Source: a phage
NCBI GenBank assembly: GCA_012646845.1
Contig: GCA_012646845.1_4707.3
Strand: one strand, 5' to 3'
Length of the DNA stretch: 28,542 nt
Each line of letters begins with the position of its first letter. Position 1 is the first letter of the stretch. The notes under the pieces are model-generated. The model was given only the letters and a program-made list of their open reading frames with translations. It did no database searches and had not been told where the DNA came from. The translations under genes and the position numbers were made by a program. This document shows positions 10,807 to 27,851 of this stretch, piece after piece.

Positions 10807-10838
10807 CCCTCTCCCAACCCGTAAGGGAAGGGAGAGGG
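10807..10838. terminator. Two-tier hairpin between convergent genes (conserved core, copy 1)
   Basis: CCCTCTCCC-AA-CCC-GTAA-GGG-AA-GGGAGAGGG. Lies between the stop of the 713-aa gene (10790) and the stop of the convergent gene (10845). Confidence 0.55.
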
Positions 10839-10844
10839 AATATG

Positions 10845-11912
10845 TTAACCTAATGTCACTGTCGGTAAATCAGGATAAAGTTTCTTCAAGCCAGCCATTG
10901 TGGTGGTAGTTGTATAATTCTTACCCATCACAGCAAGAGAGGCATATTTCCTACTGCGGGAGAAAAGAGAATAGAACCCACTGGATGTTTCCATCCACAT
11001 TGTGAGGAGTTCTGCATCGTTACCGTGATAGTTCGTTTTACCCCAGCCGGGTTTAAACGCATCAGCAAAATCAATTAAACGCGATGCTTCAGCGTCGTAT
11101 TCTTTAAGGGTAATGTACGATGGGATACGGTAGTTACGAAACAACAACGTAATGAGTTCAGGGACAACACTGCGGGCACGTTCAGCCGTAATGAGTTCGG
11201 TGATAACAGCAGCCGTACGGAAATCGCCGTTGAGACCAACGCTACTTAACGATTCCGCTAAGGTGGTTGCCATCGCTACTTTATCCTCCGCTGACCCAGA
11301 GTCATACAGACTACGCACATCGATGTAGTTGCCTGCTAATGCGGCTTGACGAATCAACGATGTGACAACTGTCCGGTTCGTCTTATAGTCGTTGTAACTA
11401 AATTCGGTTCGCGTTTTCCCTTGATCGTCGAGATACCGATCGACAATCGTTGATAGTTTATAATACTCATCGCCCGACATCAGACTATCGAGAAGCTTAA
11501 CGTTTCCATCTTTATCAATAAGCTTCCCTAACGCGCCATTGGATTGCTGGTTAATGGTACTGTAAATCTGGTCTTTTACTTGCGATAGGATGTTATCGGT
11601 CGACGATATATTCAAGCCTGTAACATCTTTGATCTTATTCATCAATGCGTTTTCATTCAGGGAGATTTTGCCGCCGCTGATATCGATGAAAGAGTTAAGA
11701 TCGCTTATGGAAATCAGGTTTCCGGTTAACGCCGATAATGTACTATTGATACTGTTCGTAATACTGCTACGAAAACTGGTTAACGCATCCGCCGCCGAAA
11801 CAGCGGTACCGCTAACCGCTTTAAGGAGCGTATCACGCCCTGTCGAAAAATCGCTGGTGATGGTTTTGATCTTGGACGTATCTATACTCGGCAGTTTGTC
11901 GTAAAGACTCAT
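10845..11912 (-). CDS. Hypothetical protein (355 aa), Ser/Thr-rich N-terminal half
   Basis: ORF track extends to 11963. I prefer the ATG at 11910-11912 (MSLYDK...), which has an AGGAGG SD about 5 nt upstream and avoids the upstream hairpin. Confidence 0.7.
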   Translation of the reverse strand: MSLYDKLPSIDTSKIKTITSDFSTGRDTLLKAVSGTAVSAADALTSFRSSITNSINSTLSALTGNLISISDLNSFIDISGGKISLNENALMNKIKDVTGLNISSTDNILSQVKDQIYSTINQQSNGALGKLIDKDGNVKLLDSLMSGDEYYKLSTIVDRYLDDQGKTRTEFSYNDYKTNRTVVTSLIRQAALAGNYIDVRSLYDSGSAEDKVAMATTLAESLSSVGLNGDFRTAAVITELITAERARSVVPELITLLFRNYRIPSYITLKEYDAEASRLIDFADAFKPGWGKTNYHGNDAELLTMWMETSSGFYSLFSRSRKYASLAVMGKNYTTTTTMAGLKKLYPDLPTVTLG

Positions 11913-11923
11913 CACGTCCTCCT

Positions 11924-11977
11924 GAAAAAGAAAAAAGAAATACGGCATAAAGCCTACCCACACAATGGTGGGTAGGC
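11924..11977 (-). terminator. Intrinsic terminator/attenuator between two minus-strand genes
   Basis: 10-bp perfect stem GCCTACCCAC / GTGGGTAGGC (11952-11977) with 6-nt loop, followed on the minus strand by a U-rich tract (plus-strand A-run at 11924-11940). Confidence 0.5.
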
Positions 11978-11994
11978 TAAGATCAACATCGATG

Positions 11995-12507
11995 TTAAAC
12001 TTCTTCGTTTTCTGAACCTAATGATTCAGCATCTGGATCGTCAACAGGAATTGTTGCATCAAAATACCGTTTCGTGTGCGTGGTTGTATATCCTACGCTA
12101 TCTGTGATGGAAATCGTAAACGTGACTTCTCTCGCACGGATTAAGCGTAGTTTATTCATGAAGTTACGGAACGGCATCGATCCCCGATTCAACTCCTTAA
12201 TGACGTTTCCTCGAATACTGGAAATATCTTTATTCGTCTTATCGGGATGCCGTTTCTTCACATCACGCATATGTCGGGTAATATACGAATTGAGCTGATT
12301 TGCGCCGATCCCTCTCTCCGTATAAATCTGCAACAGGAACTCCGTAAGGAAATCCTGTCTACCCGTAGGCGTCCAGAAATTGTTACCGTGATTGTAGTTA
12401 GTCGCTCGTCCTCGATTACTTTGAGGATTTTCATCATCGTTTTCGTCACAACGCTTAAGCGGATTAATGCGTGCTCGGAAAGAGACTTCATTATATTTAT
12501 TTGTCAT
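11995..12507 (-). CDS. Hypothetical basic protein (170 aa)
   Basis: ORF track extends to 12552. The internal ATG at 12505-12507 (MTNKYNEV...) overlaps the upstream gene's TGA stop as ATGA, indicating translational coupling. Confidence 0.6.
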   Translation of the reverse strand: MTNKYNEVSFRARINPLKRCDENDDENPQSNRGRATNYNHGNNFWTPTGRQDFLTEFLLQIYTERGIGANQLNSYITRHMRDVKKRHPDKTNKDISSIRGNVIKELNRGSMPFRNFMNKLRLIRAREVTFTISITDSVGYTTTHTKRYFDATIPVDDPDAESLGSENEEV

Positions 12508-13019
12508 AATACACCAGTGTACTGACTGAGTGCGAAGGTTAGGAGTTCGCAACAGTCTCTCGCTAGTTTCCTTGTTTTGCGTAATCCATAAGCCGCATCC
12601 AAATCGTCACGTTCCGCTAGCGCGTCTAACCACGTCGCAAGTATGCGTCCATACTCGATAACGTCACGCATGAGAACGTCGAACTGGATAACACGACCAT
12701 CGGCATCAGCAAGCCAACGATTGAATGTGATTTGTGGTGCTAGTATTGCATATGTTCTCTCCTCTAATGCGATTATGTTTATGTTGCCTTCGTTATCGAA
12801 CGCTTGATGCCAACGGCGAAGGTCAAGCATCAACGACTCAGCGTCCATATACCACAACGGTAAATACGTTTTACGTGCAACGCGTATATCGTAGATGTTG
12901 TGAACCCAGGACGTTGTTTTGTAAAGCAACAAGAGTTCGTTTAACCGTTGCCTATCATCTTGAAACGTCTTCCTTTTATAACGTTGGAACGCACGCCTCA
13001 AGAAAAAGCGATGTAACAT
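12504..13019 (-). CDS. Hypothetical protein (171 aa)
   Basis: ORF with ATG at 13019, heading a minus-strand block. A divergent intergenic region lies upstream. Confidence 0.65.
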   Translation of the reverse strand: MLHRFFLRRAFQRYKRKTFQDDRQRLNELLLLYKTTSWVHNIYDIRVARKTYLPLWYMDAESLMLDLRRWHQAFDNEGNINIIALEERTYAILAPQITFNRWLADADGRVIQFDVLMRDVIEYGRILATWLDALAERDDLDAAYGLRKTRKLARDCCELLTFALSQYTGVL

Positions 13020-13087
13020 GGCATCACCTATGTATCATTCTTGCAGGCATCAATGAAGCCATCACAAGAAGGTAACGTTATACGTCG

Positions 13088-13111
13088 CCTTCATGACAGT
13101 CATCATGAAGG
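13088..13111. promoter_or_regulatory. Perfect inverted repeat (9-bp arms, 6-bp spacer) in a divergent intergenic region; candidate operator
   Basis: CCTTCATGA-cagtca-TCATGAAGG between the minus-strand start at 13019 and the plus-strand start at 13153. A TAATAT hexamer follows at 13112-13117. Confidence 0.35.
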
Positions 13112-13152
13112 TAATATAGTCCTGTTATTTTTTTCAATACGGAGAATGTAAA

Positions 13153-13782
13153 ATGAGCGAATACGGTGTTGTCCCCGTAGATGATGAACCGCAAGAGGCA
13201 CCCGATAAATTCGAGGTCCGTCTTGACGAAACCCGTAACATCCGTCAACGATTTATTCAACGTCTTGAAATGCTGTTAGATAGCGAATTCAAAGATTTTG
13301 AGCGTAACCCCGGTGCAGATAATAAAGCCATTGTCGACGTCGAAAACGTCGACCGGATAGGTAAGCTGTTGTTGAAATCGTTGGGTGATAACGATAAAGT
13401 CGACTTAACGTTGAAACGTATCAGCGCCGACCAGGCTATGAACGACAGCGCATTGAAAACAGCACAGGCCCTAACCGAAACCATGCTGCGCCGCTTAGGT
13501 CAGATAGATGAACATCCTCTCGCAGCAGGGGCTGTTTACGATGGCGAAGTCGTGAAGTCAGTTACGCCTGAAGAACGCGATCGTCGACTTGGTTTTGCAT
13601 CGTTGGAAGAGTTTAATAGCAAGGAGTTTTCACCAGGCGTTCTCATCCAGGGACGTGTCGAAGAAACCAGTGATGCTTTCTACGCTAGAATGGCTCAACT
13701 GACGGAGTCGGTTCGTGAGGAGGTGTCTCAGAAGATGGCTGCAGATCATCAGTCTTCGGAGGCGTCACACGAGGAGGGATAA
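13153..13782 (+). CDS. Hypothetical acidic protein (209 aa)
   Basis: ATG at 13153 with GGAG SD about 8 nt upstream. Glu/Asp-rich. The 3' end overlaps the convergent gene's 3' end by about 98 nt. Confidence 0.65.
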   Translation: MSEYGVVPVDDEPQEAPDKFEVRLDETRNIRQRFIQRLEMLLDSEFKDFERNPGADNKAIVDVENVDRIGKLLLKSLGDNDKVDLTLKRISADQAMNDSALKTAQALTETMLRRLGQIDEHPLAAGAVYDGEVVKSVTPEERDRRLGFASLEEFNSKEFSPGVLIQGRVEETSDAFYARMAQLTESVREEVSQKMAADHQSSEASHEEG

Positions 13783-14473
13783 AATAACTGAACCATTTTA
13801 TCCCAAAGAACCGCATGAACATCACGGGTGCGTTAGAAAGTTCGATTGCTTCGTAAAGTTTGTCGTAAGCCAGATCGGAATCAGGGATGGTTTCGCTGAT
13901 TCGTCTGGCGACAACCAACACGTTACAAATCGGATTGTCTTCTAACAGCATCTGATTGGGGAGATGCCAGCGTTTGAAATCGTAAAAGAACATTGCGTTA
14001 TATGTCTTACGGATTTCTGATGGATGCAGTGTGGCCGGATGACGGTAAATAATCTCGACGCTATCTTGCGCACCGAGGTATTGCTGAATACCTTCTTTTA
14101 ATGCTGTCGCTGCATCTCCCACAAATTCAAACGGGTACGTGTTCACGTGAACCGAAAAATCCGGCGTAGCAATCCCCGTTAAGCGGTCTTTCATGTAATC
14201 CGCGACTACATAACACAGCCGCCACATCAACTCCGTCGGGATACATTTATCGAGAATGGTCTCGTCGATATTTGCCATCGCGTCCTTAAACTCTTCGTAA
14301 GTATAAGTAACGCCCGCCTGCTTCTCCGGCTCCAGGTTATAGGGTCGGTAATGCCATTTCTTCCCCCACTTTCTGATAGCCTCCGGATCCAACGTTGTTG
14401 CTACCGCCATTTCGATATCAAGCAATGCTTCGAGTTCTACGTACACCGTCACCAATGCTGCACTTCCAGTCAT
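13685..14473 (-). CDS. Hypothetical protein (262 aa)
   Basis: ATG at 14471-14473 overlaps the upstream gene's TAA stop by 1 nt (TAATG coupling). Last gene of a six-gene minus-strand block. Confidence 0.7.
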   Translation of the reverse strand: MTGSAALVTVYVELEALLDIEMAVATTLDPEAIRKWGKKWHYRPYNLEPEKQAGVTYTYEEFKDAMANIDETILDKCIPTELMWRLCYVVADYMKDRLTGIATPDFSVHVNTYPFEFVGDAATALKEGIQQYLGAQDSVEIIYRHPATLHPSEIRKTYNAMFFYDFKRWHLPNQMLLEDNPICNVLVVARRISETIPDSDLAYDKLYEAIELSNAPVMFMRFFGIKWFSYFIPPRVTPPKTDDLQPSSETPPHEPTPSVEPF

Positions 14474-15177
14474 TATTGCTCTCCAGCTTCACCGGTTAAC
14501 ATCTGCATATCGGGAGACGTTTTAATTTTCTTCTCGTACTCTTTTGTTTGTTTGAATACCAATTCACCGATTTCTTCCAATTCTTCAACGGTGACGGTAT
14601 GCAAATAAAGCAGCGGAATAATCCAGGTATTCGCACGAAGCATGTCCTGAATATCGTCAACGGTGGGTAACTCCGTAAAGAACTGTTCGTCTACCGCAAA
14701 TAAATCCCGTGCGATACCATCCACCAGTTTATGATCGCTTTCATGGATCCATGCAAAACTTCCAGCAAGATGATCGATAAGCATATCGATGTCATCGACC
14801 GTTGAGAACACTGTACGGCGAACATGCGTTGTGAGGTCCATCGTAAAACCCATTAACGAAGGGGTTTCCTCAGAACGGAGTTCACGCCAAAGACGGAGCA
14901 TGTTTTCGGGGATAAACAAATCATGGATGAACGTTACGCTAAATTTCGTAATCCAATCACGAATTGTCGCACCTCTGGAATACTGTTGTGGTGGGGAATA
15001 CAAATACACCCAACGTTTCGTAAACGCGATAACTTCCTTTCGCATCGTCGCATCTAAAACAAGCACGTAACGATCGGAAGCAAGCTCTTCTAACAAAAGC
15101 TCGAACGCTGTATCGCTCTCTGGGGAGAACGATCGTTTTATTTCTGCGATACGTCGTGATAGCCGACTACGTAACAT
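14473..15177 (-). CDS. Hypothetical protein (234 aa)
   Basis: ATG at 15175-15177 lies 2 nt downstream of the upstream gene's stop. No recognisable motif. Confidence 0.7.
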   Translation of the reverse strand: MLRSRLSRRIAEIKRSFSPESDTAFELLLEELASDRYVLVLDATMRKEVIAFTKRWVYLYSPPQQYSRGATIRDWITKFSVTFIHDLFIPENMLRLWRELRSEETPSLMGFTMDLTTHVRRTVFSTVDDIDMLIDHLAGSFAWIHESDHKLVDGIARDLFAVDEQFFTELPTVDDIQDMLRANTWIIPLLYLHTVTVEELEEIGELVFKQTKEYEKKIKTSPDMQMLTGEAGEQ

Positions 15178-15179
15178 AA

Positions 15180-15854
15180 TTAGCCCTCATCAAGGTTATT
15201 CTGGAGATGCATTGCGGTGAGAATAACACCAACTGCCGAAACCGATTTTGCCTTGCTGTCTTCGGGTAGCTGTTCCAAGCTTACGGTACCTGTTTCTAAC
15301 AGCATGCGGTTCATCGCGTTGAACTTCTTATCATCGCCACCACGAGCCTGCATTAACTCTCGGTTCACGTTTGGCATCGATCGTCCTAACGTTGCTTGCA
15401 TTTCCGGTTGACTCCAAGTGGAACCTTTACTATCACCTGTCGGCTGATTGGTGAGCTGGTCCTTGGTGTTGTTGTTTTTCGGAATCGATATTTTAGCACT
15501 CAGCGTTTCGGCTTGTCGGCGGTTTGGAATCAGGTACAATCTGGTTGGGCGATCACGAAGCACCAATTGTCCTGTTTTCTGATCGGTGAGATAAACGCGT
15601 TGGAAGAAAGGGAAACCGTATTTCTTGCCGACTTCCAGTGCGCGTTTTATCGTCACCTCGTTTTTGTTCATATTGGGTACCCAGATGGGTAGAATCTCTT
15701 TCTTATCCCGACATAAACGCATATACGCATCAAACGTCTCATCATCGATTTCAGCAAAACGTTTTTTGTAAATAGCGTAGGTCGGACTCGATCCCCCCAC
15801 CAAGTCTTTGATATACCCAAGAATGAATTTTTCTGCTGCAGCGCGGTTGGACAT
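15180..15854 (-). CDS. Hypothetical protein (224 aa)
   Basis: ATG at 15852-15854 with AGGAGA SD that overlaps the stop of the upstream SLOG-like gene. Confidence 0.7.
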   Translation of the reverse strand: MSNRAAAEKFILGYIKDLVGGSSPTYAIYKKRFAEIDDETFDAYMRLCRDKKEILPIWVPNMNKNEVTIKRALEVGKKYGFPFFQRVYLTDQKTGQLVLRDRPTRLYLIPNRRQAETLSAKISIPKNNNTKDQLTNQPTGDSKGSTWSQPEMQATLGRSMPNVNRELMQARGGDDKKFNAMNRMLLETGTVSLEQLPEDSKAKSVSAVGVILTAMHLQNNLDEG

Positions 15855-15863
15855 AAACGTCTC

Positions 15864-16190
15864 CTATTGTCGTGTCTGTTGCGGAAATACCCGAAACACC
15901 TGGACGATGATGTTCTTGTCCTCGCGGTTGGCGATGTCAATCATGTGTTTTGTTCCAGGACTTTTGAAATCCCAGAACGCAACTAGATGCGTAATGACAT
16001 CGCCCATCCACTCGTTGCGTCTGAATCCAGCACCTTTACGATAAGGGCCATCCCAATCGGCAGGAAACGTGGTGTATTTAAACCCGTAATCCTTCGCATA
16101 GCGGCGCACATGCAAATCAGCACCTGAACGCGCACCGCCAGCAATGAGATGAACTTTGTCGTGAGGGAGGTTATGTAACATCTGGTTCAT
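15864..16190 (-). CDS. SLOG/DUF2493-like small Rossmann-fold protein (DprA/LOG-related)
   Basis: Motifs HLIAGGARSGADLHVRRYAKDYG ... FPADWDGPYRKGAGFRRNEWM ... LVAFWDFKSPGTKHMIDIA match the DUF2493/SLOG pattern as I recall it. Track start is TTG 16205; I prefer ATG 16188-16190 (MNQMLHNL...). Confidence 0.6.
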   Translation of the reverse strand: MNQMLHNLPHDKVHLIAGGARSGADLHVRRYAKDYGFKYTTFPADWDGPYRKGAGFRRNEWMGDVITHLVAFWDFKSPGTKHMIDIANREDKNIIVQVFRVFPQQTRQ

Positions 16191-16258
16191 ACGCTTTTCG
16201 AACAAGGGATAATCATCCCAGTAGCGTGATCCTGATACCCCTACACGATAGGGTTCGC

Positions 16259-16579: not shown

Positions 16580-16591
16580 TTATTCAGCCTT

Positions 16592-18180: not shown

Positions 18181-19023
18181 ATGCATAAATTTACCATTCC
18201 TGAAGACCCGATTACACTGCAGACCCTTTGGGATTCACATCGTGCTCTATCAATGGAAGGCTTTGCACAAGACTTCGCTTCACTTACCGCGGTAACGAAT
18301 CTTCGTAGTATGTTTACTAACGGTAAGAAGTTCGTTACCGACTGGCTTAAGAAACGTGATGTGACGGTTTATCCTAAAGTCTTCGATGACCTCGATACCA
18401 TCTTTAGCAACAACGCTTACAGCGATCTCATTGGGTATCGTGCTTTTATTCCGAATGGTTTAAATGCACCGATGTCAGATTATGTTGTTGCTCTAACCCA
18501 GAGCCTGGATAGCGTAATTGGCACCATCCTACCCGATTTAGATAAGTTGACCGTAACGTGCGCTAAAGCCGTCAATGACGTCAACTTCCGTCGTAGTAGT
18601 GGTATGGCTCAAACACTACCTAAAAACGACCCAGAGAACGTTTTAGAGACGTTACGTGCGATGTTCAAACGTGGGACGGTAACACAGACCACTGTAGGTC
18701 GTGCATATAAGAACGAAGACGATATCCGTCAGATCGGAAAAGATCTGGATACTTCCCGCATCCGTGCGCTCGACGTTAATCCTAAAGACGTGAAGAAAGC
18801 AATCGAACGTTTCATGGAAGTGGCTGACCGCTTAACCGAAATCCTGGTTCAAGACTACAACGAAGGTGCGGTGAGCAACGCGATGATTCGCGATATTAGT
18901 GACGCTATCTACCAAACAGCCAAGCAGGCTGAACTGTATGCGTTTCTCGTGAACGCTTTGGCTGAGGCGATCACTGCATATAACGACACTTGGGACGCTG
19001 TTAAAAAGAACGCGAAAAAATAA
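18181..19023 (+). CDS. Hypothetical protein (280 aa)
   Basis: ATG at 18181 with GAGGA SD 5 nt upstream. Followed by a bidirectional hairpin. Confidence 0.75.
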   Translation: MHKFTIPEDPITLQTLWDSHRALSMEGFAQDFASLTAVTNLRSMFTNGKKFVTDWLKKRDVTVYPKVFDDLDTIFSNNAYSDLIGYRAFIPNGLNAPMSDYVVALTQSLDSVIGTILPDLDKLTVTCAKAVNDVNFRRSSGMAQTLPKNDPENVLETLRAMFKRGTVTQTTVGRAYKNEDDIRQIGKDLDTSRIRALDVNPKDVKKAIERFMEVADRLTEILVQDYNEGAVSNAMIRDISDAIYQTAKQAELYAFLVNALAEAITAYNDTWDAVKKNAKK

Positions 19024-19032
19024 CATAATAAC

Positions 19033-19067
19033 CCACCCTACTACCCTGTTAAGGGCGGTAGGGTGGG
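19033..19067. terminator. Bidirectional two-tier hairpin terminator between convergent genes
   Basis: CCCACCCTAC-ta-CCCT-gtta-AGGG-cg-GTAGGGTGGG, flanked by T-rich sequence on both strands. Confidence 0.55.
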
Positions 19068-19074
19068 GTAAGGT

Positions 19075-19506
19075 TTATTTGCCGTATAGTTGTACCACTC
19101 GTTGTGTCGTAGGAACGCAGACTCTTACCAGAAGCTTTTTAATCTCCTGACGAATCGTTGCCTTATCATCATAATAAAGCCATGGTGGAACGCGTTGCAT
19201 TATGCACTGCACGGCTTCATCGTAGTTTGTCGTCCCATTAAGTAACGTCTCACTATCCAGATCTTTCCATGCAGTAATACCAAGTCGCGCAGCAAACATC
19301 AACGCTGAAACCGACTCAGCTATCTCCAATCGCTCATTCATATCCGCAAGACCTTTTAGCATGACGTAATTATCGTCATGCTGGTGCAGGGTACCAAACA
19401 AACTTCCGAAGAGAAGTATACGTTTAGCTTTTGCGGTTAAGAGGAACGACAGGAGAGCGTGTTTCAACGGTTGTTTCTCACGTTCTACCTGTTCGACCAT
19501 CACCAT
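19075..19506 (-). CDS. Hypothetical protein (143 aa)
   Basis: ATG at 19504-19506 lies 3 nt downstream of the RNase H gene stop (coupled). Confidence 0.65.
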   Translation of the reverse strand: MVMVEQVEREKQPLKHALLSFLLTAKAKRILLFGSLFGTLHQHDDNYVMLKGLADMNERLEIAESVSALMFAARLGITAWKDLDSETLLNGTTNYDEAVQCIMQRVPPWLYYDDKATIRQEIKKLLVRVCVPTTQRVVQLYGK

Positions 19507-19509
19507 TGA

Positions 19510-21036: not shown

Positions 21037-21086
21037 TGTAAACCTCATTAATCATTGTCCGTATGATAGCCCAAAGTTGTACGGTA

Positions 21087-21638: not shown

Positions 21639-21692
21639 GCGTGTGTCCTTGATAGTATGAAATTTCCAATACAACTTAACCGAGGACGTCGA
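21639..21692. promoter_or_regulatory. Divergent intergenic region
   Basis: 54-bp gap between divergent starts at 21638 (-) and 21693 (+), containing both ribosome-binding sites. Confidence 0.3.
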
Positions 21693-23033
21693 ATGATTAG
21701 TATTTTTGGTTTTTATACGTACAAAGGGTACGCTAATAACCACCCAAAAACCACGGCGAAATTCGGTGAGTTCAGCCAGCATAGTGCTACGTTCAGTCGC
21801 GAGATCGGCATCTATACCAACACGGCGTACGCACGTACGACCCTGCTGGTATTGAATGCAGAAAACGAAGCTGGTGAAGCACAAACGCTGGATGACAACA
21901 CCGCAAATCAGATTCTTCAGGTTGGTCAATGGTTGCTGGAAAAAGCCTCATCGGGCGAAATCCAGGATGACAGAGACCAGGTTATCAGCTACCTAAAAGA
22001 CGACTTCACAACGTATTTGGATTCTATCGACATCCCGACACCCACCACCGATGGGAACGTCTATCTACCGGCGTGGATCAGTTTCAAGATAACCGCCACG
22101 GGTGATGTTGTCAAGATATGGCTGTCTGATAGCGTATTCCAAAGTCAATATCCAAAATACGAATACGAAGTCGTTCCTCCCGTTCCTAAGGACCAGTTAG
22201 ACACCTTCTTCGAAGATCTGGCAACGTTGAAGAAACTGGTTGACAGTCGAAGCAGCGAGAAACTGACCGAAGAAATCAACGAGGTGCGCGACCAATTCCC
22301 AGACACACAATTGTGGACGAAAACCTATAAAGCGTACGATTACACCGACGATTCGAAGTACATTGATACCGATTGGACGGTGATTATCTACGGTGCAGCA
22401 GGTAACAATATTGATAATATCAAGGAGTTCCTGCAAAACTGGATTCTTAGCAATAGCACGCATGGACGCCCAGACTGGGAAATCGTTCTGCCGGATCTTT
22501 TTATTCCGACGGAACACATCTTCATCCCGATCTGGAACCGCCACAGCGCTCCGGAGATGACCAATCAGGCACGTATCTATAGTCCCATCTTCGATGATTC
22601 GTTGATGGATACCTACCTGAAAAACTTTGCTGATGGTTACGGTGAAACCGCCGAAGTCCGTAAATCGCTTCAAGCGGTGCCGACGCTGTGGCGTTCGATC
22701 GGTTTCTTAAGTGTTGGTAACTCACGTAACCGTGATGGTAAACTTAAGTTCTACGATCGTTGGCCGCAATACGCACTCATCAGCACAACCAGCATTGATA
22801 TTAACCGTATCGATGACGCGACACGCGAATTTATCACCTTCACTTACGAAATGCTGAAACTGGCGGAATCGCTCACCGAAGACGATCCGGTACCGTTGGG
22901 TTATAGTCGTGTTACGCGTGGTAGCAATAACTTCTTAGCGAAAAGCCACAACGATGTTCAGTATCTCTTCTTAACAAAAGAAGCGTTCCTGAAGAAAATG
23001 CCGGATGAAGCCGACACACCTGTTGGAGGTTGA
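21693..23033 (+). CDS. Hypothetical protein (446 aa)
   Basis: Track start is ATG 21657. I prefer ATG 21693 (MISIFGFY...), which has GAGGA 6 nt upstream. No recognisable motif. Confidence 0.75.
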   Translation: MISIFGFYTYKGYANNHPKTTAKFGEFSQHSATFSREIGIYTNTAYARTTLLVLNAENEAGEAQTLDDNTANQILQVGQWLLEKASSGEIQDDRDQVISYLKDDFTTYLDSIDIPTPTTDGNVYLPAWISFKITATGDVVKIWLSDSVFQSQYPKYEYEVVPPVPKDQLDTFFEDLATLKKLVDSRSSEKLTEEINEVRDQFPDTQLWTKTYKAYDYTDDSKYIDTDWTVIIYGAAGNNIDNIKEFLQNWILSNSTHGRPDWEIVLPDLFIPTEHIFIPIWNRHSAPEMTNQARIYSPIFDDSLMDTYLKNFADGYGETAEVRKSLQAVPTLWRSIGFLSVGNSRNRDGKLKFYDRWPQYALISTTSIDINRIDDATREFITFTYEMLKLAESLTEDDPVPLGYSRVTRGSNNFLAKSHNDVQYLFLTKEAFLKKMPDEADTPVGG

Positions 23034-23035
23034 TT

Positions 23036-23662
23036 ATGGCTGTAACACGCATGACGCCAAGTCCCGGTGCGGTCGGGGTATTCACAGTATCAGCGCCGTT
23101 CACCGTTGGTGCGTCAACGCTTTATACCGTTACAGCGTTGCGTAGATTCAGTGAAGTTATTGGTAGCGGAATCGATCTATTTAAGGAACTGTACGAACCG
23201 TTATCGATAGACAAATCCACATTCGATGCGCATCTCGAAGCGAATGCATATCTCGTTACGCTGCAACCGGATTACGGTGCGCCCGTACTGGTACCTGATA
23301 CGTATATCACGTCGTACCCAAAGAACGATTCATTGCGGTATCGTCGCATTATTCTGGGTATCGATTTCGGGCCTCTTCCTCCAGGTCTTGACCTTTCGTA
23401 TTTAACAACGATATTGAAAGGTAAGGCCAGTGATATTCTTGGTGTCGAACCTGAAGTTAAAATAATGGAAATCACTCTCGATGATACCGTTACTCAGGAA
23501 CAACATCAGATAAACGAAGCCCGTCGTCAGGCTGCGATAAAAGAGCGAGATACCATTTACGCACGCTGTGAAACGCAAGAGAAGCAGATAACGGCTTTAC
23601 TTGCAACCCAAAAGCAACTTATCAAATTGCTTCAGGACGCCGGAATCAATCCGACACCTTAA
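23036..23662 (+). CDS. Hypothetical protein (208 aa) with C-terminal coiled-coil-like region
   Basis: ATG at 23036-23038 with GGAGG 6 nt upstream, 2 nt after the upstream gene's stop. Track uses TTG 23030. Confidence 0.7.
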   Translation: MAVTRMTPSPGAVGVFTVSAPFTVGASTLYTVTALRRFSEVIGSGIDLFKELYEPLSIDKSTFDAHLEANAYLVTLQPDYGAPVLVPDTYITSYPKNDSLRYRRIILGIDFGPLPPGLDLSYLTTILKGKASDILGVEPEVKIMEITLDDTVTQEQHQINEARRQAAIKERDTIYARCETQEKQITALLATQKQLIKLLQDAGINPTP

Positions 23663-23668
23663 CATATT

Positions 23669-23700
23669 CCCTCCTCCTTCCCTCACGGGTTGGAGGAGGG
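23669..23700. terminator. Two-tier hairpin (conserved core, copy 2)
   Basis: CCCTCCTCC-TT-CCC-TCAC-GGG-TT-GGAGGAGGG, 7 nt after the TAA stop at 23662. Confidence 0.5.
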
Positions 23701-23714
23701 TTATGCTGTCAAGC

Positions 23715-23763
23715 AAAAAAAAAAAATGATAGTCACGGACCCTCCAATGAAGGAGGGTCGTGA
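23715..23763 (-). terminator. Intrinsic terminator for the convergent minus-strand gene
   Basis: Hairpin GTCACGGACCCTCC-aatgaa-GGAGGGTCGTGAC (23733-23763), followed on the minus strand by a 12-nt U tract (plus-strand A12 at 23715-23726). Confidence 0.65.
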
Positions 23764-23772
23764 CCGTCAGTT

Positions 23773-24474
23773 TTAGGATGTAGATAATCTCGCGTACTTC
23801 TGGCGAACATGGTTCTTACGGCGAACTTCGTCATCCTCGTCACGCCATTCGAGGTAAGCAACGAATCGACGTAACTGTGCTGCTGTCATCGTTGACGATC
23901 GGTCTTCTACATCTAGAACGACGTAACGAACGCCACCAACATCATCGCAATCAACGTAATTGAATACCATAAGACCATCACTGTATTCAACGACGGTAAC
24001 TTCGAACCGTTTCTCGAACAAATAAAACAGTTCCGATTCGATGATCATCGGAATGACGCATATATCAGCACGATCGAGGATTTCCATCATCACCCGTAAC
24101 GCGCGAGGAGTATGGCGAGCGAACTGACCGTTAAAACGTTGTCTCATTGCTTGTTCCACGCCATCTGTTTTTGTTCCAAACCAAGGACGTATTACAGATT
24201 TCGGTGGTGTGAGACGAAAGCGATATGCCTGTATAAACAACAGAATATCAGCGACGTTAGGAAATTCTTCCTGGTCTTCGTATATCTTGCGGATAATATC
24301 CGGAATCGTAACCATCAAGTATTTCTTATCGCCTCCCACTTTCTCGAGATTAGCAATATGCCCTTCTACTACTGGCTGGTAAACGAAATTATACCAATGA
24401 CGGTATCTTGCGGCACGCTGGTAGTTCGGGATAAAATTAAGAACAACATTCACTGCACGTTTTAACGGGTTCAT
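23773..24474 (-). CDS. Hypothetical protein (233 aa)
   Basis: ATG at 24472-24474 with AAGGA SD. Track uses TTG 24477. Confidence 0.7.
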   Translation of the reverse strand: MNPLKRAVNVVLNFIPNYQRAARYRHWYNFVYQPVVEGHIANLEKVGGDKKYLMVTIPDIIRKIYEDQEEFPNVADILLFIQAYRFRLTPPKSVIRPWFGTKTDGVEQAMRQRFNGQFARHTPRALRVMMEILDRADICVIPMIIESELFYLFEKRFEVTVVEYSDGLMVFNYVDCDDVGGVRYVVLDVEDRSSTMTAAQLRRFVAYLEWRDEDDEVRRKNHVRQKYARLSTS

Positions 24475-24488
24475 CAAAAGGTTCCTTC

Positions 24489-24902
24489 TTATGTTTTAAT
24501 ATGCACATCGTCAATCCCCTCGGTAATCCAGCCGATGGGAAGGACAATCGTTGTTATCGTGTTATGGGTGTAGGGATTAAGAAAATGGAAATAGTAATTT
24601 TTGTTAGACTGTTCGATGCGTAGCTCGAGCTGCGCGTCTTCAGGTAACCGCAACCAAGCACCGTACAGTTCATTAAACTTACGCTGAATTTTACCCGGGT
24701 TCATTGGAACCCTACGACCACGATGGCGTAACTGACGTAATGATTCAATCAAACACTCAGAGATACCCATTACCGTTCCGTTATCGCTTGTATCAATAAC
24801 GATGAACTCATGTGACCCGCGGCCATGATAGAATCCAGCAACAAGCGCAACGGCGACAACGACAACCGTACCGATACCTACGTACCAATAGTAAACGTCC
24901 AT
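24489..24902 (-). CDS. Small membrane protein (137 aa), N-terminal TM helix
   Basis: ATG at 24900-24902 (MDVYYWYVGIGTVVVVAVALVAGFY...) with GAGG SD. Track uses TTG 24923. Confidence 0.6.
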   Translation of the reverse strand: MDVYYWYVGIGTVVVVAVALVAGFYHGRGSHEFIVIDTSDNGTVMGISECLIESLRQLRHRGRRVPMNPGKIQRKFNELYGAWLRLPEDAQLELRIEQSNKNYYFHFLNPYTHNTITTIVLPIGWITEGIDDVHIKT

Positions 24903-24913
24903 AACAGCCTCAC

Positions 24914-25441
24914 TTATACCCAATAGTCGGCGAGCGGTTTCACCTTATTAATGGGTAACTGTACCTTACCGATGTTCTCTACATCCGCATCAGCGTAGAG
25001 AACGATTTTATCGTCGTCTCTTTCCCAACGAATAATAAATCGACCAGGAAGAAGATTACCCTGTTCAAGAGATGCTGTAACCTGTTGTGTTAAAACAGAC
25101 AACCAAGCAGGCATCAGTGTTGCAATATCTAAGTCGTTTGACCACTCAGCACGTTGCTCCACCGGGCGTAACATACGTTCGACGGTGCGTTGAACCGTTG
25201 CGGTGATATAGCCTTTATCTTCGTCACTGATTGGATCAGGGCGAGACACGAAACGTTCAGCAGGTTTACGGGAAATATGCTCATGTAAATCGATGAGTGG
25301 TGTTGTCATAGTACTCGCTCCATCAGAATGTAATTGGGTAACCCGTAGGGTTGTCTGCATGCTATTCAGAAGCGCAAAAGCGCCATAAACAACAACGATA
25401 CCAAGTATAGCCAAAACAGAAATCATTAACGTGTATTGCAT
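24914..25441 (-). CDS. Small membrane protein (175 aa), N-terminal TM helix
   Basis: ATG at 25439-25441 (MQYTLMISVLAILGIVVVYGAFALL...) with AGGGGAG 6 nt upstream. Track uses TTG 25489. Confidence 0.6.
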   Translation of the reverse strand: MQYTLMISVLAILGIVVVYGAFALLNSMQTTLRVTQLHSDGASTMTTPLIDLHEHISRKPAERFVSRPDPISDEDKGYITATVQRTVERMLRPVEQRAEWSNDLDIATLMPAWLSVLTQQVTASLEQGNLLPGRFIIRWERDDDKIVLYADADVENIGKVQLPINKVKPLADYWV

Positions 25442-25479
25442 TGTCATCTCCCCTACATACGCATCTTGAAGATCGGTTA

Positions 25480-25536
25480 AAAACAACAAAAGAAAAAACG
25501 ATATAAAGCAAGGTCCTCTGATATCAGAGGACCTTG
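25480..25536 (-). terminator. Intrinsic terminator between minus-strand genes
   Basis: 28-nt perfect palindrome CAAGGTCCTCTGATATCAGAGGACCTTG (25509-25536), preceded on the plus strand by an A-rich run that gives a U tract on the minus-strand transcript. Confidence 0.55.
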
Positions 25537-25542
25537 GATCAA

Positions 25543-26199
25543 TTAGCTTGCAGCTTCTTCATTTGTATCAGGTTTGCTTCCCCCTAACAAACCGTCAAAC
25601 AGACCCGTATGTTTCAGGTAGAAGAGAGCGATAGCGCCCATTGCTGCTGCGCTCGTCGCCGTTAACGCAACCCCGGCACGATACTGCCATTTACGGTCGG
25701 GCTTTTGATCAAGAGCCATACGACGCATGTATTCAGCCTCTGCCTCATTCCGATGAATTTCGGATTCAGCCAAGCGGGCTAAGGTATCGCGGTCAAGGTT
25801 ATCATAACGTACGTTCATGGTGGTTTCCTCTTGTTTGGAAGTTGATTGCTTAGTGGATTCTTGGTCAATAGTCGTTTCAGATGGTTCAAACGGCTGGTTG
25901 TTCATTTTCTGATCTTTATTGGTCATGATAGACTCCTTCGATTTTTGAGACGAAATTGATTTAAACCATCGTGGATGGCGGTATTCAGTTTTACATGTGC
26001 AGTTAAGTTTCTCGTGCAGGAAAGCGTAAAAACGTTTTGCGCCTACACGTAAGGCTTTCAGCATTACCCATCCACGAGCACTCAAACGGTGTAGCTGTTG
26101 CGGTATGTCTAGTTTCCTAGCCAAGCGAAAGTATCTTTCAATCACTTCGATAGGAAACCATTGTTGTTCCACATCGGTGAGACTGAAAGTCTTATCCAT
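25543..26199 (-). CDS. Hypothetical protein (218 aa) with basic N-terminal region and C-terminal TM helix; may be two genes
   Basis: ATG at 26197-26199. An internal in-frame ATG at 25924-25926 (MTNKDQK...) has a strong AAGGAG SD, so a shorter 128-aa product is possible. C-terminal hydrophobic segment VALTATSAAAMGAIALFYL. Confidence 0.55.
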   Translation of the reverse strand: MDKTFSLTDVEQQWFPIEVIERYFRLARKLDIPQQLHRLSARGWVMLKALRVGAKRFYAFLHEKLNCTCKTEYRHPRWFKSISSQKSKESIMTNKDQKMNNQPFEPSETTIDQESTKQSTSKQEETTMNVRYDNLDRDTLARLAESEIHRNEAEAEYMRRMALDQKPDRKWQYRAGVALTATSAAAMGAIALFYLKHTGLFDGLLGGSKPDTNEEAAS

Positions 26200-26349
26200 G
26201 AATGAAATCTCGCTGGCTTACTTCACTTAAGTAATATAGCCGTGAAAAATGTTGGATTAAGTTAAATACTGCAACCGTAACTGATTTTATGGGCTTTTAG
26301 CCTAAACCAATCATCTTCGGAATCATCATCTTTGAAACAGGAACCTATC

Positions 26350-27171
26350 ATGGAAAAAGTATTTGTTTGTAAGTTGTTTACTAACGGCAATAGCCAACCA
26401 ATGTACCTGACCGATCCAGTTCTAGGTAATCGGAACAGCACCGTATTCAAAGAAGCTATCGAATACGCTAAAAATAAAGCCGTGAGAACACTGACGTCCG
26501 ATGACTGTATCAACGGTATCACGTGGGCAGAGTTATTCGGTGATGCTGTTAGACACTTCGTTCGGGACGCAAGAAAACGGGAAATCTGTCTCACGACTAT
26601 TGTTGTGCGCGAAAACGCAGAAATCTTATCAAACGTTTTAGTTGATTTTAATGACGTTTGCGTGTTTAATCCAGAGAACACGTTTGAACAATATCTTACT
26701 GCCCTGAACAACCAGCTCGGTAAAGATATTCATCCCGAATTCGCCAAGTTAACGTATCAAGTGCTTTTTAACGACGTCGATCCAAACACAAAGATCAACA
26801 CCAGCTTATCGCCCCTGGTAAAGAAATACGGATCGGTTCTTGCTACGGCAACATCCACCACCGATGGCGGTTATGATATCGAATTGGATGGTCCATTAAA
26901 AGAACAAGAACCTACTGGGGTTCGGGCAATACACCATACCCTCGTCGTTAAATCCGATGGTTGTGATGAGCATTACGCTATGACAAACGATGAAAATAAT
27001 CACCGTTTAAGTCAAGCGATCGGTGTTCTACGTTATACCGAACCAACCACTGTAGACGATTATACATCGACAACAACGCACACCACGTGTTTCATTTTCA
27101 TCTATCCCAATGAAAGTGTGTACATTACCGACTGCTACGGCAACACCGTAGATAGCTTACGTCGTTATTGA
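26350..27171 (+). CDS. Hypothetical protein (273 aa)
   Basis: ATG at 26350 (MEKVFV...) with AGGAA SD. Track uses TTG 26332. Followed by a canonical terminator. Confidence 0.7.
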   Translation: MEKVFVCKLFTNGNSQPMYLTDPVLGNRNSTVFKEAIEYAKNKAVRTLTSDDCINGITWAELFGDAVRHFVRDARKREICLTTIVVRENAEILSNVLVDFNDVCVFNPENTFEQYLTALNNQLGKDIHPEFAKLTYQVLFNDVDPNTKINTSLSPLVKKYGSVLATATSTTDGGYDIELDGPLKEQEPTGVRAIHHTLVVKSDGCDEHYAMTNDENNHRLSQAIGVLRYTEPTTVDDYTSTTTHTTCFIFIYPNESVYITDCYGNTVDSLRRY

Positions 27172-27177
27172 TTATCG

Positions 27178-27206
27178 AGCCTGTCCTTCGGGGCAGGCTT
27201 TTTATG
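27178..27206 (+). terminator. Canonical rho-independent terminator
   Basis: AGCCTGTCC-ttcg-GGGCAGGCT stem-loop followed by TTTTTAT, 7 nt after the stop. Confidence 0.7.
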
Positions 27207-27229
27207 CTGTTAAATATCAGGAATAAGAA

Positions 27230-27259
27230 TTAACAAAATAGGAAAATGGTGTGAATATA
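27230..27259 (+). promoter_or_regulatory. Candidate sigma70-like promoter
   Basis: TTAACA (27230-27235), then 17 nt, then GAATAT (27253-27258). Sits between a terminator and a strong SD at 27265-27272. Weak match; by eye only. Confidence 0.25.
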
Positions 27260-27280
27260 ACACAAAGGAGGGAGATGATT

Positions 27281-27397
27281 ATGTTACTCATTCTAATGGA
27301 GAGAGCATTGCTGGCGGGTATATGCGCATTCTCTGTTAAACACGCTGTTGCTATCATGACTGAAGAAAGGCGTAATACGCATAATGTATTACGCTGA
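27281..27397 (+). CDS. Small hydrophobic peptide (38 aa), not in the ORF track
   Basis: ATG at 27281 lies 9 nt downstream of AAGGAGGGAG. Translation MLLILMERALLAGICAFSVKHAVAIMTEERRNTHNVLR. Stop at 27395-27397 is 5 nt before the next ATG. Confidence 0.35.
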   Translation: MLLILMERALLAGICAFSVKHAVAIMTEERRNTHNVLR

Positions 27398-27402
27398 AAA
27401 CA

Positions 27403-27816
27403 ATGTCTGCATTAGTGTATGACGAGAAATCGTCGAGGCCCCCGTCTTCACGAGGGCCAACACCTATGCGCGACTATTTATCATCTACGAAACAAAAGGT
27501 TATAAACATGAGCAATTTGAATGTTGAGTTTACTTCAACAACGCCTGTCATGAATGGTGTTGGTACTGAAACCAAGATCGTATTAGAACCCATTCCGGGA
27601 TTACGTGATCTCGGTGATTTTTACCAACTGATGCCACGTATACGTAACGCCTTAAACAGTATCGATCTTGATTCCGATAAAGATTTCCAACACGATACAG
27701 AAAATACCGATCATGTGTTGCTACCATCAGGGATCGGAAAATTCACCTACACGCAAACATTGAAAGCCTCCGATGGTGAGATCCGTCGTTTTATTGTTGA
27801 AGTAGAAAGCGCATAA
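27403..27816 (+). CDS. Hypothetical protein (137 aa)
   Basis: ORF from ATG 27403. An alternative start at the ATG around 27508 (MSNLNVEF...) is possible. Followed by a two-tier hairpin. Confidence 0.55.
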   Translation: MSALVYDEKSSRPPSSRGPTPMRDYLSSTKQKVINMSNLNVEFTSTTPVMNGVGTETKIVLEPIPGLRDLGDFYQLMPRIRNALNSIDLDSDKDFQHDTENTDHVLLPSGIGKFTYTQTLKASDGEIRRFIVEVESA

Positions 27817-27821
27817 AAACC

Positions 27822-27851
27822 ATCCTCCCTTCCCTTACGGGTTGGGAGGAT
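27822..27851. terminator. Two-tier hairpin (conserved core, copy 3); acts as terminator for the minus-strand tmk gene
   Basis: ATCCTCCC-TT-CCC-TTAC-GGG-TT-GGGAGGAT. On the minus-strand transcript it is followed by GGUUUUU. Confidence 0.55.

Follow-up and report, generated by a model that had tools for sequence, protein, structure and literature searches.

Repeated two-tier hairpins at gene ends of a Goslar-like jumbo phage as probable variants of the phiKZ-type transcription terminator

In chimalliviruses, transcription takes place within a nucleus made of protein and relies on non-canonical RNA polymerases of the phage itself, whose way of stopping is so far known only through 3'-end maps of two Pseudomonas phages. 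In phiKZ, ONT-cappable-seq identified the motif BCCYCCCCHWWDGGGRRGGBYTTATKYYGT in 61 terminator regions and showed terminators at convergent gene pairs that work in both directions (Putzeys et al., 2024; PMC10914365). For 201phi2-1, a motif A (n = 59) that resembles the phiKZ motif, a combination of motifs A and B (n = 21) that gives an elongated stem-loop, and eight terminators that are active in vivo have been described (PMC11512511).

We analysed a 28,542-nt stretch of phage DNA (the window; contig GCA_012646845.1_4707.3) that shows 95.5% identity to the E. coli jumbo phage Goslar. The phage is a Goslar relative, i.e., a nucleus-forming chimallivirus. The Goslar record annotates PhuZ, a shell protein of the phage nucleus and several genes for beta-like RNA polymerase subunits, and we count both this kinship and these genes in favour of a terminator of the chimallivirus type. 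A preliminary description of the window had reported three copies of a two-tier hairpin at gene ends, as well as a fourth hairpin with the same layout and a different sequence (Table 1). We propose, with a probability of roughly 0.75, that in this Goslar-like chimallivirus all four act as intrinsic terminators of transcription, as signals forming 3' ends, and that they represent a two-tier, elongated form, specific to the lineage, of the terminator mapped in phiKZ and 201phi2-1. As such they would most likely serve the phage RNA polymerases in one or both directions.

Table 1. Hairpins and associated TATG signals in the window (all positions in + strand coordinates).
Feature	Position	Strand	Sequence	Context
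Copy 1, two-tier hairpin	10807-10838	-	CCCTCTCCC TT CCC TTAC GGG TT GGGAGAGGG	between convergent genes 8649-10790 (+) and 10845-11963 (-)
Copy 1, TATG signal	10841-10844	+	AATATGTTAAC	
Copy 1, matching signal	10797-10805	-	TTTATGCAT	
Copy 2, two-tier hairpin	23669-23700	+	CCCTCCTCC TT CCC TCAC GGG TT GGAGGAGGG	begins 7 nt past the stop of gene 23030-23662 (+)
Copy 2, 3' flank	23701-23709	+	TTATGCTGT	immediately 3' of the hairpin; exact fit to TTATKYYGT, the 3' part of the phiKZ terminator consensus
Copy 2, TATG on opposite strand	23663-23666	-		
Copy 3, two-tier hairpin	27822-27851	+	ATCCTCCC TT CCC TTAC GGG TT GGGAGGAT	outer stem ATCCTCCC/GGGAGGAT
Copy 3, 3' flank	27856-27863	+	TATGCCGT	3' of the hairpin
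Copy 3, TATG on opposite strand	27812-27815	-		overlaps the stop codon of the + strand gene
Fourth two-tier hairpin	19032-19067	-	CCCACCCTAC-T-ACCC-TGTTA-AGGG-C-GGTAGGGTGGG	-30 kcal/mol
One-tier terminator, same grammar	11942-11978	-	AGCCTACCCAC...GTGGGTAGGCT, then TTATGCCGT	hairpin at 11951-11978
One-tier terminator, same grammar	27178-27210	+	AGCCTGTCC-TTCG-GGGCAGGCT, then TTTTATGCTGT	hairpin at 27178-27199

Reading and folding of the sequence bore out the coordinates, sequences and two-tier architecture of the three copies. The 14-nt core TTCCCTYACGGGTT has exactly three matches in the window against 0.00 expected (0 in 100 dinucleotide-preserving shuffles), and even with two mismatches allowed chance accounts for only 0.33 matches. 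The two-tier hairpin is the minimum-free-energy structure of each copy (z about -6 relative to shuffles), with energies ranging from -24.5 kcal/mol for copy 3 through -28.6 kcal/mol for copy 2 to -29.3 kcal/mol for copy 1, whose + strand folds at -27.9 kcal/mol. Covariance-model scores reach 68.6 bits for copy 1 (E = 3e-19) and 68.2 bits for copy 2. Convergent ORFs flank each of the three copies as well as the fourth hairpin, with the hairpins starting 6-18 nt past stop codons. Copy 1 is found 6 nt past the stop of the - strand gene and 16 nt past that of the + strand gene, and copy 3 separates gene 27403-27816 (+) from a thymidylate kinase homologue at 27870-28511 (-). The gene facing copy 2 (23773-24477, -) has a hairpin and T13 terminator of its own at 23733-23765. 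With its CATA...TATG flanks the conserved unit spans about 50 bp, which exceeds the extent first described.

The copies are not conventional rho-independent terminators. None of the three has a U-tract (at least 5 U in the 8 nt right after the stem; flanks TTATGCTG, GAAATATG and GTTTATGC), and a simple rho-independent terminator scan of the window called none of them. An Rfam search of the whole window returned three sub-threshold chance matches only, including mir-320 over copy 3 (23 bits against a gathering score of 55.5 bits), and assigned no family.

The window copies belong to a real, non-random family at gene ends, with about 15 two-tier copies in the Goslar genome (14 exact), each located 5-30 nt past a stop codon. 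In a covariance-model search of Goslar, whose genome is 93% coding, all 14 exact copies and all weaker matches (about 32 distinct loci at E <= 1) were intergenic; none fell randomly within coding sequence, an outcome that would have spoken against a gene-end element. A strict pyrimidine-arm/purine-arm hairpin was present at 16/20 convergent junctions, compared with 1/20 divergent and 15/207 co-directional ones. The convergent count becomes 16-19/20 when three further hairpins are considered, two within overlapping annotated ORFs and one with arms that are not purely pyrimidine. Ten of the 15 two-tier copies face a convergent gene. The outer stems co-vary, as the preliminary description had suggested from three copies: in an alignment of 17 copies (window and Goslar), 99% of cells are paired, and five outer pairs show compensatory double changes (28 cells) with no one-sided change. 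Since this covariation proceeds without G-U intermediates, the palindrome is preserved on both strands.

The fourth hairpin belongs to this terminator class as a more remote member and obeys the same grammar, although in sequence it is only a weak relative of the three copies (covariance-model E = 0.38). Its different sequence and two-tier layout are as first reported, while its span is one base longer than the 19033-19067 given then. It sits between convergent genes 18181-19023 (+) and 19075-19506 (-), and its - strand continues into TTATTATGTTAT. The Goslar ortholog (NC_048170, 232609-232644, -) is annotated 'putative transcriptional terminator', and the depositors gave the same label to two of the two-tier copies. 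The window also holds one-tier hairpins of this grammar. One lies downstream of the - strand gene 11995-12552; the other (27178-27210) corresponds to Goslar 3508-3527 (+), an ortholog that the record labels a terminator.

What characterizes the class beyond the stem is a directional flank: TATG-Y-Y-G-T follows the stem on the strand or strands where a gene ends. At co-directional junctions in Goslar, TATG occurs within about 8 nt past the stem in 14/15 cases on the sense strand versus 2/15 on the antisense strand, and convergent junctions carry it on both strands in most cases. The positions after hairpin-linked TATGs are Y (86%), Y (81%), G (54%) and T (46%), with no YYGT-type bias among 178 other intergenic TATGs. 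Stem and TATG are 1-7 nt apart in Goslar-type copies. In the window, the fit to TTAT-K-YY-GT is exact for copy 2; the copy 3 flank reads ATATGCCGT against it, and the - strand flank of copy 1 fits YYGT in part only. The feature in common with other chimalliviruses is thus the pyrimidine/purine-arm stem with its directional TATG-YYGT flank, which is the published phiKZ motif. We recovered the same hairpin and TATG grammar directly in phiKZ DNA, with arms such as CCCTCTCC/GGAGAGGG and CCCTCCC/GGGAGGG, and one-tier hairpins of Goslar, as well as those of the window at 11951-11978 and 27178-27199, match the phiKZ consensus with 2-4 mismatches. In the Erwinia phage Ea35-70, a TATGCCG flank is kept while the arm polarity is reversed.

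Comparison with phiKZ concerns two chimalliviruses with a GC-rich hairpin, its 5' arm rich in pyrimidines and its 3' arm in purines, with TTAT-K-YY-GT in place of a long U-tract, located just past stop codons and bidirectional at convergent genes with CATAA...TTATG flanks. All three window copies share these arms, this flank and this location. They differ in lacking the single 7-9 bp stem with a 4-nt HWWD loop: instead, a 14-nt insert, TT-CCC-TYAC-GGG-TT, forms a second tier. The gap between stem and TATG is also more variable in the window copies, and the phiKZ 3' ends are mapped whereas the Goslar-type elements are read from sequence. Given the second tier and the one-tier, consensus-fitting versions elsewhere, we consider the flagged copies a structural variant of the phiKZ-type family. 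The elongated A/B stem-loops of 201phi2-1 offer a precedent for an extended basic terminator, though not necessarily for a two-tier mini-hairpin of the Goslar type.

Canonical bacterial rho-independent and bidirectional terminators likewise place a stable GC-rich hairpin right after the gene, and their palindromic forms serve convergent pairs. Unlike these, the Goslar-type elements have no U-tract (or A-tract plus U-tract) but a specific TATG-YYGT flank, and their stems are stereotyped (CCCTCCTCC/GGAGGAGGG) and not arbitrary. As first noted, the specific sequence in the element goes beyond the needs of a generic rho-independent terminator. REP/BIME elements of enterobacteria and PeSL elements of T4-type phages are also palindromes that recur outside genes, at gene ends, with the capacity to terminate transcription or stabilise mRNA, and PeSL elements couple the stem-loop with a promoter. 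In contrast to both, the Goslar-type family gives no sign of mobility or of an associated transposase, and its flank is common to terminators of distant chimalliviruses.

A mechanism can be outlined by analogy with phiKZ. Within 5-30 nt past a gene end, the RNA polymerase would transcribe the pyrimidine-rich arm, the CCC-N4-GGG mini-hairpin and the complementary purine-rich arm, in the order seen in the sequence. The mini-hairpin, small and fast-folding, may nucleate closure of the 9-bp outer stem into a 12-bp structure of about -25 to -29 kcal/mol. Transcription would then stop at the (T)TATG-Y-Y-G-T found 1-7 nt past the stem on the transcribed strand, a signal whose role in replacing the U-tract is modelled on the mapped phiKZ 3' ends. 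At convergent pairs, where a perfect palindrome free of G-U pairs carries TATG on both strands, one element could end both transcripts. The polymerases would presumably be the phage's own multisubunit enzymes inside the phage nucleus. The analysis shows that an E. coli chimallivirus shares the grammar of pyrimidine/purine hairpin and TATG-YYGT and that its flank is strand-specific, which together with Ea35-70 extends the rule across genera; what Ea35-70 contributes is the downstream TATG kept despite reversed arm polarity. For Goslar, which is in wide use as a model phage, the grammar provides simple criteria by which to annotate transcription units, and the two-tier copies are compact candidates for bidirectional termination that synthetic biology might exploit. 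On this reading the two-tier family consists of specialised terminators of an already described kind and is no hitherto unknown class of recognised elements.

In phiKZ, late promoters have the core 5'-TATG-3', with G as +1, and the beta-like GP123 of the phiKZ non-virion RNA polymerase binds TATG as single-stranded DNA on the non-template strand, from -3 to +1. The flank could therefore have a second or different role. We suggest tentatively, as an idea we doubt more than we believe, that the hairpin-linked TATG is the very 4-nt element recognised at late promoters. The same pocket would hold or pause an elongating polymerase that exposes TATG in its bubble, leaving an RNA 3' end about 5-10 nt past the stem, the geometry that a hairpin needs for transcript release; the pause would stand in for a bacterial terminator's U-tract. 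Promoters and terminators would then depend on a single recognition element that the core enzyme reads and that is conserved over the chimallivirus genera Phikzvirus, Goslarvirus and Agricanvirus. Our literature search found no paper tying TATG to termination, and the TATG flank, common to the late-promoter core, is the part that deserves mechanistic tests.

The same TATG, present after nearly every hairpin of this class, might instead serve the non-virion RNA polymerase as a late promoter, so that the hairpin ends the upstream transcript and a new one starts directly downstream, as in the PeSL cassettes. The identity with the phiKZ promoter core favours this idea, as does UViG_3300045988_173921, in which two copies share an identical 3' flank leading into the start of a gp047-like gene, as would be expected had the hairpin been duplicated along with that start. 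We nevertheless judge it unlikely: at least 16 convergent junctions have TATG on both strands and would fire into the antisense of the opposing gene, the YYGT extension is absent from other intergenic TATGs and from the p119L late promoter (TATGTAGA), and TATG by itself is insufficient for promoter activity. Read-through RNA could also be cut or trimmed back to the hairpin, which would shield the mRNA from 3' exonucleases; REP elements and T7 RNase III sites are the comparison cases for such protection or processing. The high stability of the hairpins (-24 to -33 kcal/mol), the absent U-tract and an irregular 12-bp stem with symmetric internal loops that may resemble nuclease substrates and protective 3' structures would all suit this, and 3'-end mapping in phiKZ cannot by itself tell termination from processing and exonuclease trimming to the hairpin. 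A purely protective hairpin, however, hardly explains a strand-specific flank, and eight 201phi2-1 terminators cut downstream reporter expression in a terminator trap in uninfected cells (PMC11512511). We thus find processing in place of termination quite improbable, while noting that stabiliser and terminator roles can coexist.

Other features point to the DNA itself. The confinement of about 15 near-identical copies to a single phage lineage, perfect palindromes without G-U pairs, and centres inverted at four or more orthologous sites, which shows that the arms interact at the DNA level in replication or recombination, could mark a REP- or MITE-like palindrome that is mobile or recombinogenic, or a site for a DNA-binding protein or cruciform, with gene ends merely tolerating insertion. 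This we regard as very unlikely, for the window, Goslar and two IMG/VR relatives have the same sites with no presence/absence polymorphism or target-site duplication, the Goslar annotation contains no transposase or RAYT-like gene, and a continuum leads from the two-tier copies to ordinary one-tier terminators fitting the phiKZ consensus; a flank direction tied to the strand of the ending gene is likewise unexpected for a mobile repeat. Translational control, with the purine arm GGAGG as a Shine-Dalgarno sequence for the AUG in TATG and the anti-SD-like pyrimidine arm as its mask, seems scarcely credible despite the ideal spacing in GGAGGAGGG-UU-AUG and the use of this ATG as the annotated start codon of Goslar gp047, gp111, gp183 and gp167. 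In most copies, the three of the window among them, no plausible ORF follows the AUG (10 codons for copy 2, two for copy 1), the majority face a convergent gene, and Ea35-70 has the opposite arm polarity.

The preliminary description had taken the nearly identical inner core, together with the co-varying outer stems, as the sign of a recognised RNA or DNA element. The extra sequence information is real, but the recognised-looking part is not mainly the core, which is conserved in related phages only as far as the Goslar lineage, to which the CCC-TYAC-GGG tier is confined. Its loop varies (TTAC, TCAC, TGAC, TGAT, TGCT, TGTT and ATTAC), also between orthologs: the Goslar counterpart of copy 1 (224384-224415) has TCAC, and that of copy 2 has TGAT in Goslar and ATTAC in UViG_3300045988_173921. 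Termination alone does not account for the near-invariance of the CCC/GGG tier and of the TT/TT internal loops in the roughly 15 copies, which may simply reflect recent copying. Moreover, the 14-bp centre is precisely inverted at orthologous sites between near-identical phages with flanks unchanged, as for copy 3 in Goslar and UViG_3300011560 (four-genome alignment). A core that flips orientation is probably not read strand-specifically. Small hairpin-associated inversions occur in chloroplast non-coding DNA ('flip-flop' inversions), and quasipalindrome template-switch mutations in E. coli; in these, too, a segment between short inverted repeats is precisely inverted among relatives, whereas the Goslar-type segment is itself a conserved mini-hairpin within a phage regulatory element.

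The three two-tier hairpins lie exactly where the preliminary description had placed them, each with a pyrimidine/purine outer stem around a TT-CCC-TYAC-GGG-TT inner core. The 14-nt core (TTCCCTYACGGGTT) has three matches in the window and none in 100 dinucleotide-preserving shuffles, and 0.33 matches would be expected in the window at up to two mismatches. For every copy the minimum-free-energy structure is the two-tier hairpin (-24.5 to -29.3 kcal/mol, z about -6); the two-tier observation is confirmed and has solid statistical backing. The three copies and a fourth hairpin of the same layout and different sequence are all located between convergent ORFs, 6-18 nt past a stop codon. No U-tract follows any of copies 1-3, and a simple terminator scan calls none of the three. 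An Rfam scan returned no family for the two-tier elements and a tRNA scan nothing relevant. A ribosomal S15 leader match below the Rfam threshold (28 bits versus a gathering threshold of 39.5, E = 0.008) falls inside a 2252-aa ORF and most likely arose by chance.

Features of the window and of related phage genomes (L002, L004, L005 and L006 are pieces of the Goslar record, L028 is Erwinia phage Ea35-70)
Feature	Location	Strand	Sequence
Copy 1	window 10807-10838	-	CCCTCTCCC-TT-CCC-TTAC-GGG-TT-GGGAGAGGG
Copy 2	window 23669-23700	+	CCCTCCTCC-TT-CCC-TCAC-GGG-TT-GGAGGAGGG
Copy 3	window 27822-27851	+	ATCCTCCC-TT-CCC-TTAC-GGG-TT-GGGAGGAT
Fourth hairpin	window 19032-19067		
One-tier element, phiKZ-like grammar	window 11951-11978	-	
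One-tier element, phiKZ-like grammar	window 27178-27199	+	
Flank behind gene-end hairpin	window 11942	-	TATGYYGT
Flank behind gene-end hairpin	window 23702	+	TATGYYGT
Flank behind gene-end hairpin	window 27203	+	TATGYYGT
Flank behind gene-end hairpin	window 27856	+	TATGYYGT
Inverted centre, copy 3 site	window 27830-27843; L002 4158-4171; L008 9540-9553; L012 13984-13997		
S15 leader match	window 2665-2770	+	
Two adjacent hairpins	window 1751-1797		
A13 run	window 23715-23727		
Hairpin beyond A13 run	window 23733-23765		GTCACGGACCCTCC-AATGAA-GGAGGGTCGTGAC
Repeated record ends	L006 37252-37307; L002 1-56		
Ea35-70 terminator hairpins	L028 5446-5465, 6052-6077, 27578-27603		AGGAGAG...CTCTCCT
Annotated starts in TATG (gp047, gp111, gp183, gp167)	Goslar 49770-49774, 117664-117668, 166922-166926, 152270-152274 (L002, L004, L005)		
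gp145	Goslar 134413-134640 (L004 34413-34640)	+	
Two-tier terminator spanned by gp145	Goslar 134586-134615		
Segment lacking annotated genes	Goslar 14972-15825 (L002)		

Escherichia phage vB_EcoM_Goslar (NC_048170, 237 kb), with which the window shares 95.5% identity, is a nucleus-forming jumbo phage; its record includes genes for PhuZ, a nuclear shell protein and several beta-like subunits of RNA polymerase. The genome-wide test was run on the complete Goslar genome. It contains 14 two-tier copies that combine a TT-CCC-N4-GGG-TT core with pyrimidine/purine arms, and a further copy has a 5-nt loop; some copies are already annotated as putative terminators. Their consensus extends over about 50 bp, (C)ATAACAGCATATT-CCCTCCTCC-TT-CCC-TTAC-GGG-TT-GGAGGAGGG-TTATGCTGT. 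In an alignment of 17 copies from the window and Goslar, 99% of the cells are paired. Compensatory double changes at five outer-stem pairs (28 cells, always C-G to U-A) bear out the covariation suggested earlier, and the alignment holds no one-sided (G-U) change, so the palindrome is perfect on both strands.

A genome-wide motif search of the kind proposed in the preliminary description, using a covariance model built from this alignment (E <= 1), recovered the seeds and about 17 weaker hairpins in Goslar. All of the roughly 32 loci are intergenic in a genome that is 93% coding, rather than scattered in coding sequence. An independent scan for all-pyrimidine 7-mers with a reverse complement at most 30 nt away found 34 Goslar hairpins, 32 of them intergenic and the remaining two at the ends of annotated ORFs that are short or overlap. 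Such a hairpin is present at 16 of 20 convergent, 1 of 20 divergent and 15 of 207 co-directional junctions. Three further convergent junctions with a hairpin were left out of this strict count: two have it inside overlapping annotated ORFs, and the third is the site of the fourth hairpin, whose arms are not purely pyrimidine. The annotated 75-aa ORF gp145 spans a two-tier terminator, overlaps the end of gp146 and is probably not a real gene.

Elements of this kind have already been described for two Pseudomonas chimalliviruses. ONT-cappable-seq of phiKZ showed that most intrinsic terminators share 5'-BCCYCCCCHWWDGGGRRGGBYTTATKYYGT-3', a hairpin followed by TTAT, and that bidirectional terminator regions lie between convergent genes (PMC10914365). 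The same motif was found in 201phi2-1 (n = 59), with elongated hairpins where two motifs co-occur and with terminator trap activity for eight terminators (PMC11512511). Reading the phiKZ DNA directly, we found the same hairpin and TATG grammar, for example CCCTCTCC-TTAT-GGAGAGGG-CTTATGATGT and, from a junction of convergent genes, cataag-CCCTCCC-GCAA-TGGGAGGG-cattatg. Goslar in turn has plain one-tier matches to the phiKZ consensus at 2-4 mismatches, and one-tier elements of this grammar also occur in the window. The terminator hairpins of Ea35-70 have purine-first arms, the opposite polarity to Goslar and phiKZ, yet TTATGCCG or TATGCCGA still lies downstream on the sense strand(s). Thus the TATG-YYG flank is common to all three chimallivirus genera examined, whereas the inner core and the arm polarity are not. 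The arms are always purine/pyrimidine-segregated and resemble Shine-Dalgarno/anti-Shine-Dalgarno pairs. The three copies are best described as phiKZ-type terminators in which the 4-nt loop is replaced by a 14-nt mini-hairpin; the earlier view that they exceed a generic terminator was right, though the kind of element was already known from phiKZ and 201phi2-1.

The flank carries direction. At co-directional (- -) junctions, TATG occurs within about 8 nt past the stem on the sense strand of 14 of 15 hairpins and on the antisense strand of 2 of 15, while convergent junctions usually have it on both strands. The palindromic flank at convergent sites therefore represents two directional signals and not a stem, and we rejected pairing of CATA with TATG as a third stem tier. 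The positions after hairpin-linked TATGs are biased (Y 86%, Y 81%, G 54%, T 46%); no YYGT bias follows 178 other intergenic TATGs. Four of the six TATGYYGT matches in the window stand directly after a gene-end hairpin.

Given the gene position, hairpin stability, outer-stem covariation, strand-specific flank and a grammar identical to the mapped terminators of relatives, the best-supported reading is that the hairpins would serve as uni- or bidirectional intrinsic terminators for the phage-encoded multisubunit RNA polymerases or, more cautiously, in 3'-end formation; we infer that transcripts of this phage end at them. In phiKZ, late promoters have the core 5'-TATG-3', whose G is +1 and which the non-virion RNA polymerase requires in order to transcribe (PMC4666361). 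The beta-like subunit GP123 of this enzyme binds TATG on the non-template strand in single-stranded form; the binding pocket opens through an 8-degree rotation of the beta-lobe (PMC12809450). This tetranucleotide recurs in the terminator flank, again on the non-template strand, and its G lies 5-10 nt past the stem, about where a hairpin-dependent terminator releases RNA. From these coincidences one may speculate that the TATG pocket of the core enzyme supplies the pause in place of the bacterial U-tract. A literature search found no paper linking TATG to termination; TATG as a signal common to promoters and terminators is a testable idea.

Alternatively, the hairpin-linked TATGs could themselves be promoters. 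This would suit the co-directional junctions but fits poorly at the at least 16 convergent ones, where a TATG promoter on each strand would transcribe the opposing gene in antisense, and with the YYGT extension, which is absent from the phiKZ late promoter p119L. A processing or stabiliser hairpin is compatible with termination rather than exclusive of it, though improbable on our assessment. For a mobile REP-like repeat, neither presence/absence polymorphism nor an annotated transposase in the Goslar record offers support. Sequestration of Shine-Dalgarno sequences is a minor rival, applicable at most to gp047, gp111 (SAM methyltransferase), gp183 and gp167, four Goslar genes annotated as starting at the ATG within the terminator TATG. 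Their only Shine-Dalgarno candidate is the purine arm (GGGAGGG or GGGAGAGGG); the terminator hairpin would occlude the ribosome-binding site unless an upstream ribosome opens it. Recognition of the element by the RNA-binding protein ChmC is unsupported; the eCLIP signal of ChmC peaks near start codons, with no binding motif found.

The inner core is a different matter. Scanning IMG/VR for the core with pyrimidine/purine arms yielded nothing beyond Goslar, two Goslar-like contigs of 182.9 and 237.5 kb, and a 43.7-kb contig that is not similar to Goslar and looks like a chance match. This makes the core lineage-specific; the exact core was not found to be widely distributed. Its loop reads TTAC, TCAC, TGAC, TGAT, TGCT, TGTT or ATTAC and differs even between orthologous sites. 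Moreover, in genomes about 95-97% identical, the whole 14-bp centre is precisely inverted at at least four orthologous sites, with outer arms and flanks unchanged. At the copy 3 site, the window and UViG_3300045988_173921 have TTCCCTTACGGGTT, and Goslar and UViG_3300011560_000001 have AACCCGTAAGGGAA, two genomes each way; the others, at least three, are the Goslar gp245/244, gp043/044 and gp057/058 junctions. Six coordinated differences in 14 bp, with almost none in the flanks, amount to a single inversion between inverted-repeat arms ('flip-flop'); its probable origin is recombination across the hairpin or template switching.

One of the flips is at a co-directional junction. Evidently the core can lie either way round, which speaks against its being recognised strand-specifically; a strict requirement for one reading was rejected. 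Of the proposal that the hairpins form a recognised element, a family with specific sequence stands; the inner core, lineage-specific, variable in its loop and flipped, is not the main part that looks recognised. GNRA tetraloops (GUAA or GUGA) appear when the core loops are read on the opposite strand. The TT version lies on the main coding (-) strand for 13 of the 15 Goslar cores; this orientation has a predicted stability advantage of about 1.4 kcal/mol, and the bias could reflect history or mild selection. Plausibly, the inner tier folds fast and nucleates timely closure of the long outer stem.

Several neighbouring structures were also observed. An A13 run separates copy 2 from a second hairpin, which on the - strand is followed by TATCA and T13 and looks like a conventional terminator for the - strand gene at 23773-24477. 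The Goslar GenBank record is cut at this site and its ends repeat about 56 bp, which looks like an assembly overlap. Two adjacent hairpins occupy the divergent region between 42-1730 (-) and the 2252-aa gene at 1841-8599 (+). The second (CTTCCTTGC-TTGAG-GCGAGGAAG, then TTATTAGG) has terminator-like pyrimidine/purine arms and TTAT in a would-be 5' leader, and may be an attenuator akin to the reported 5'-UTR terminators of phiKZ. Finally, outside the window, 850 bp of Goslar directly downstream of a two-tier terminator lack annotated genes. Long AT-rich tracts occur there together with a structured, GC-rich segment (GGCCCCTTCGGGGGACGGGGGAGGAGCGAAG); this region could encode a non-coding RNA, and a conserved sRNA has been reported for giant phages (PMC11512511).
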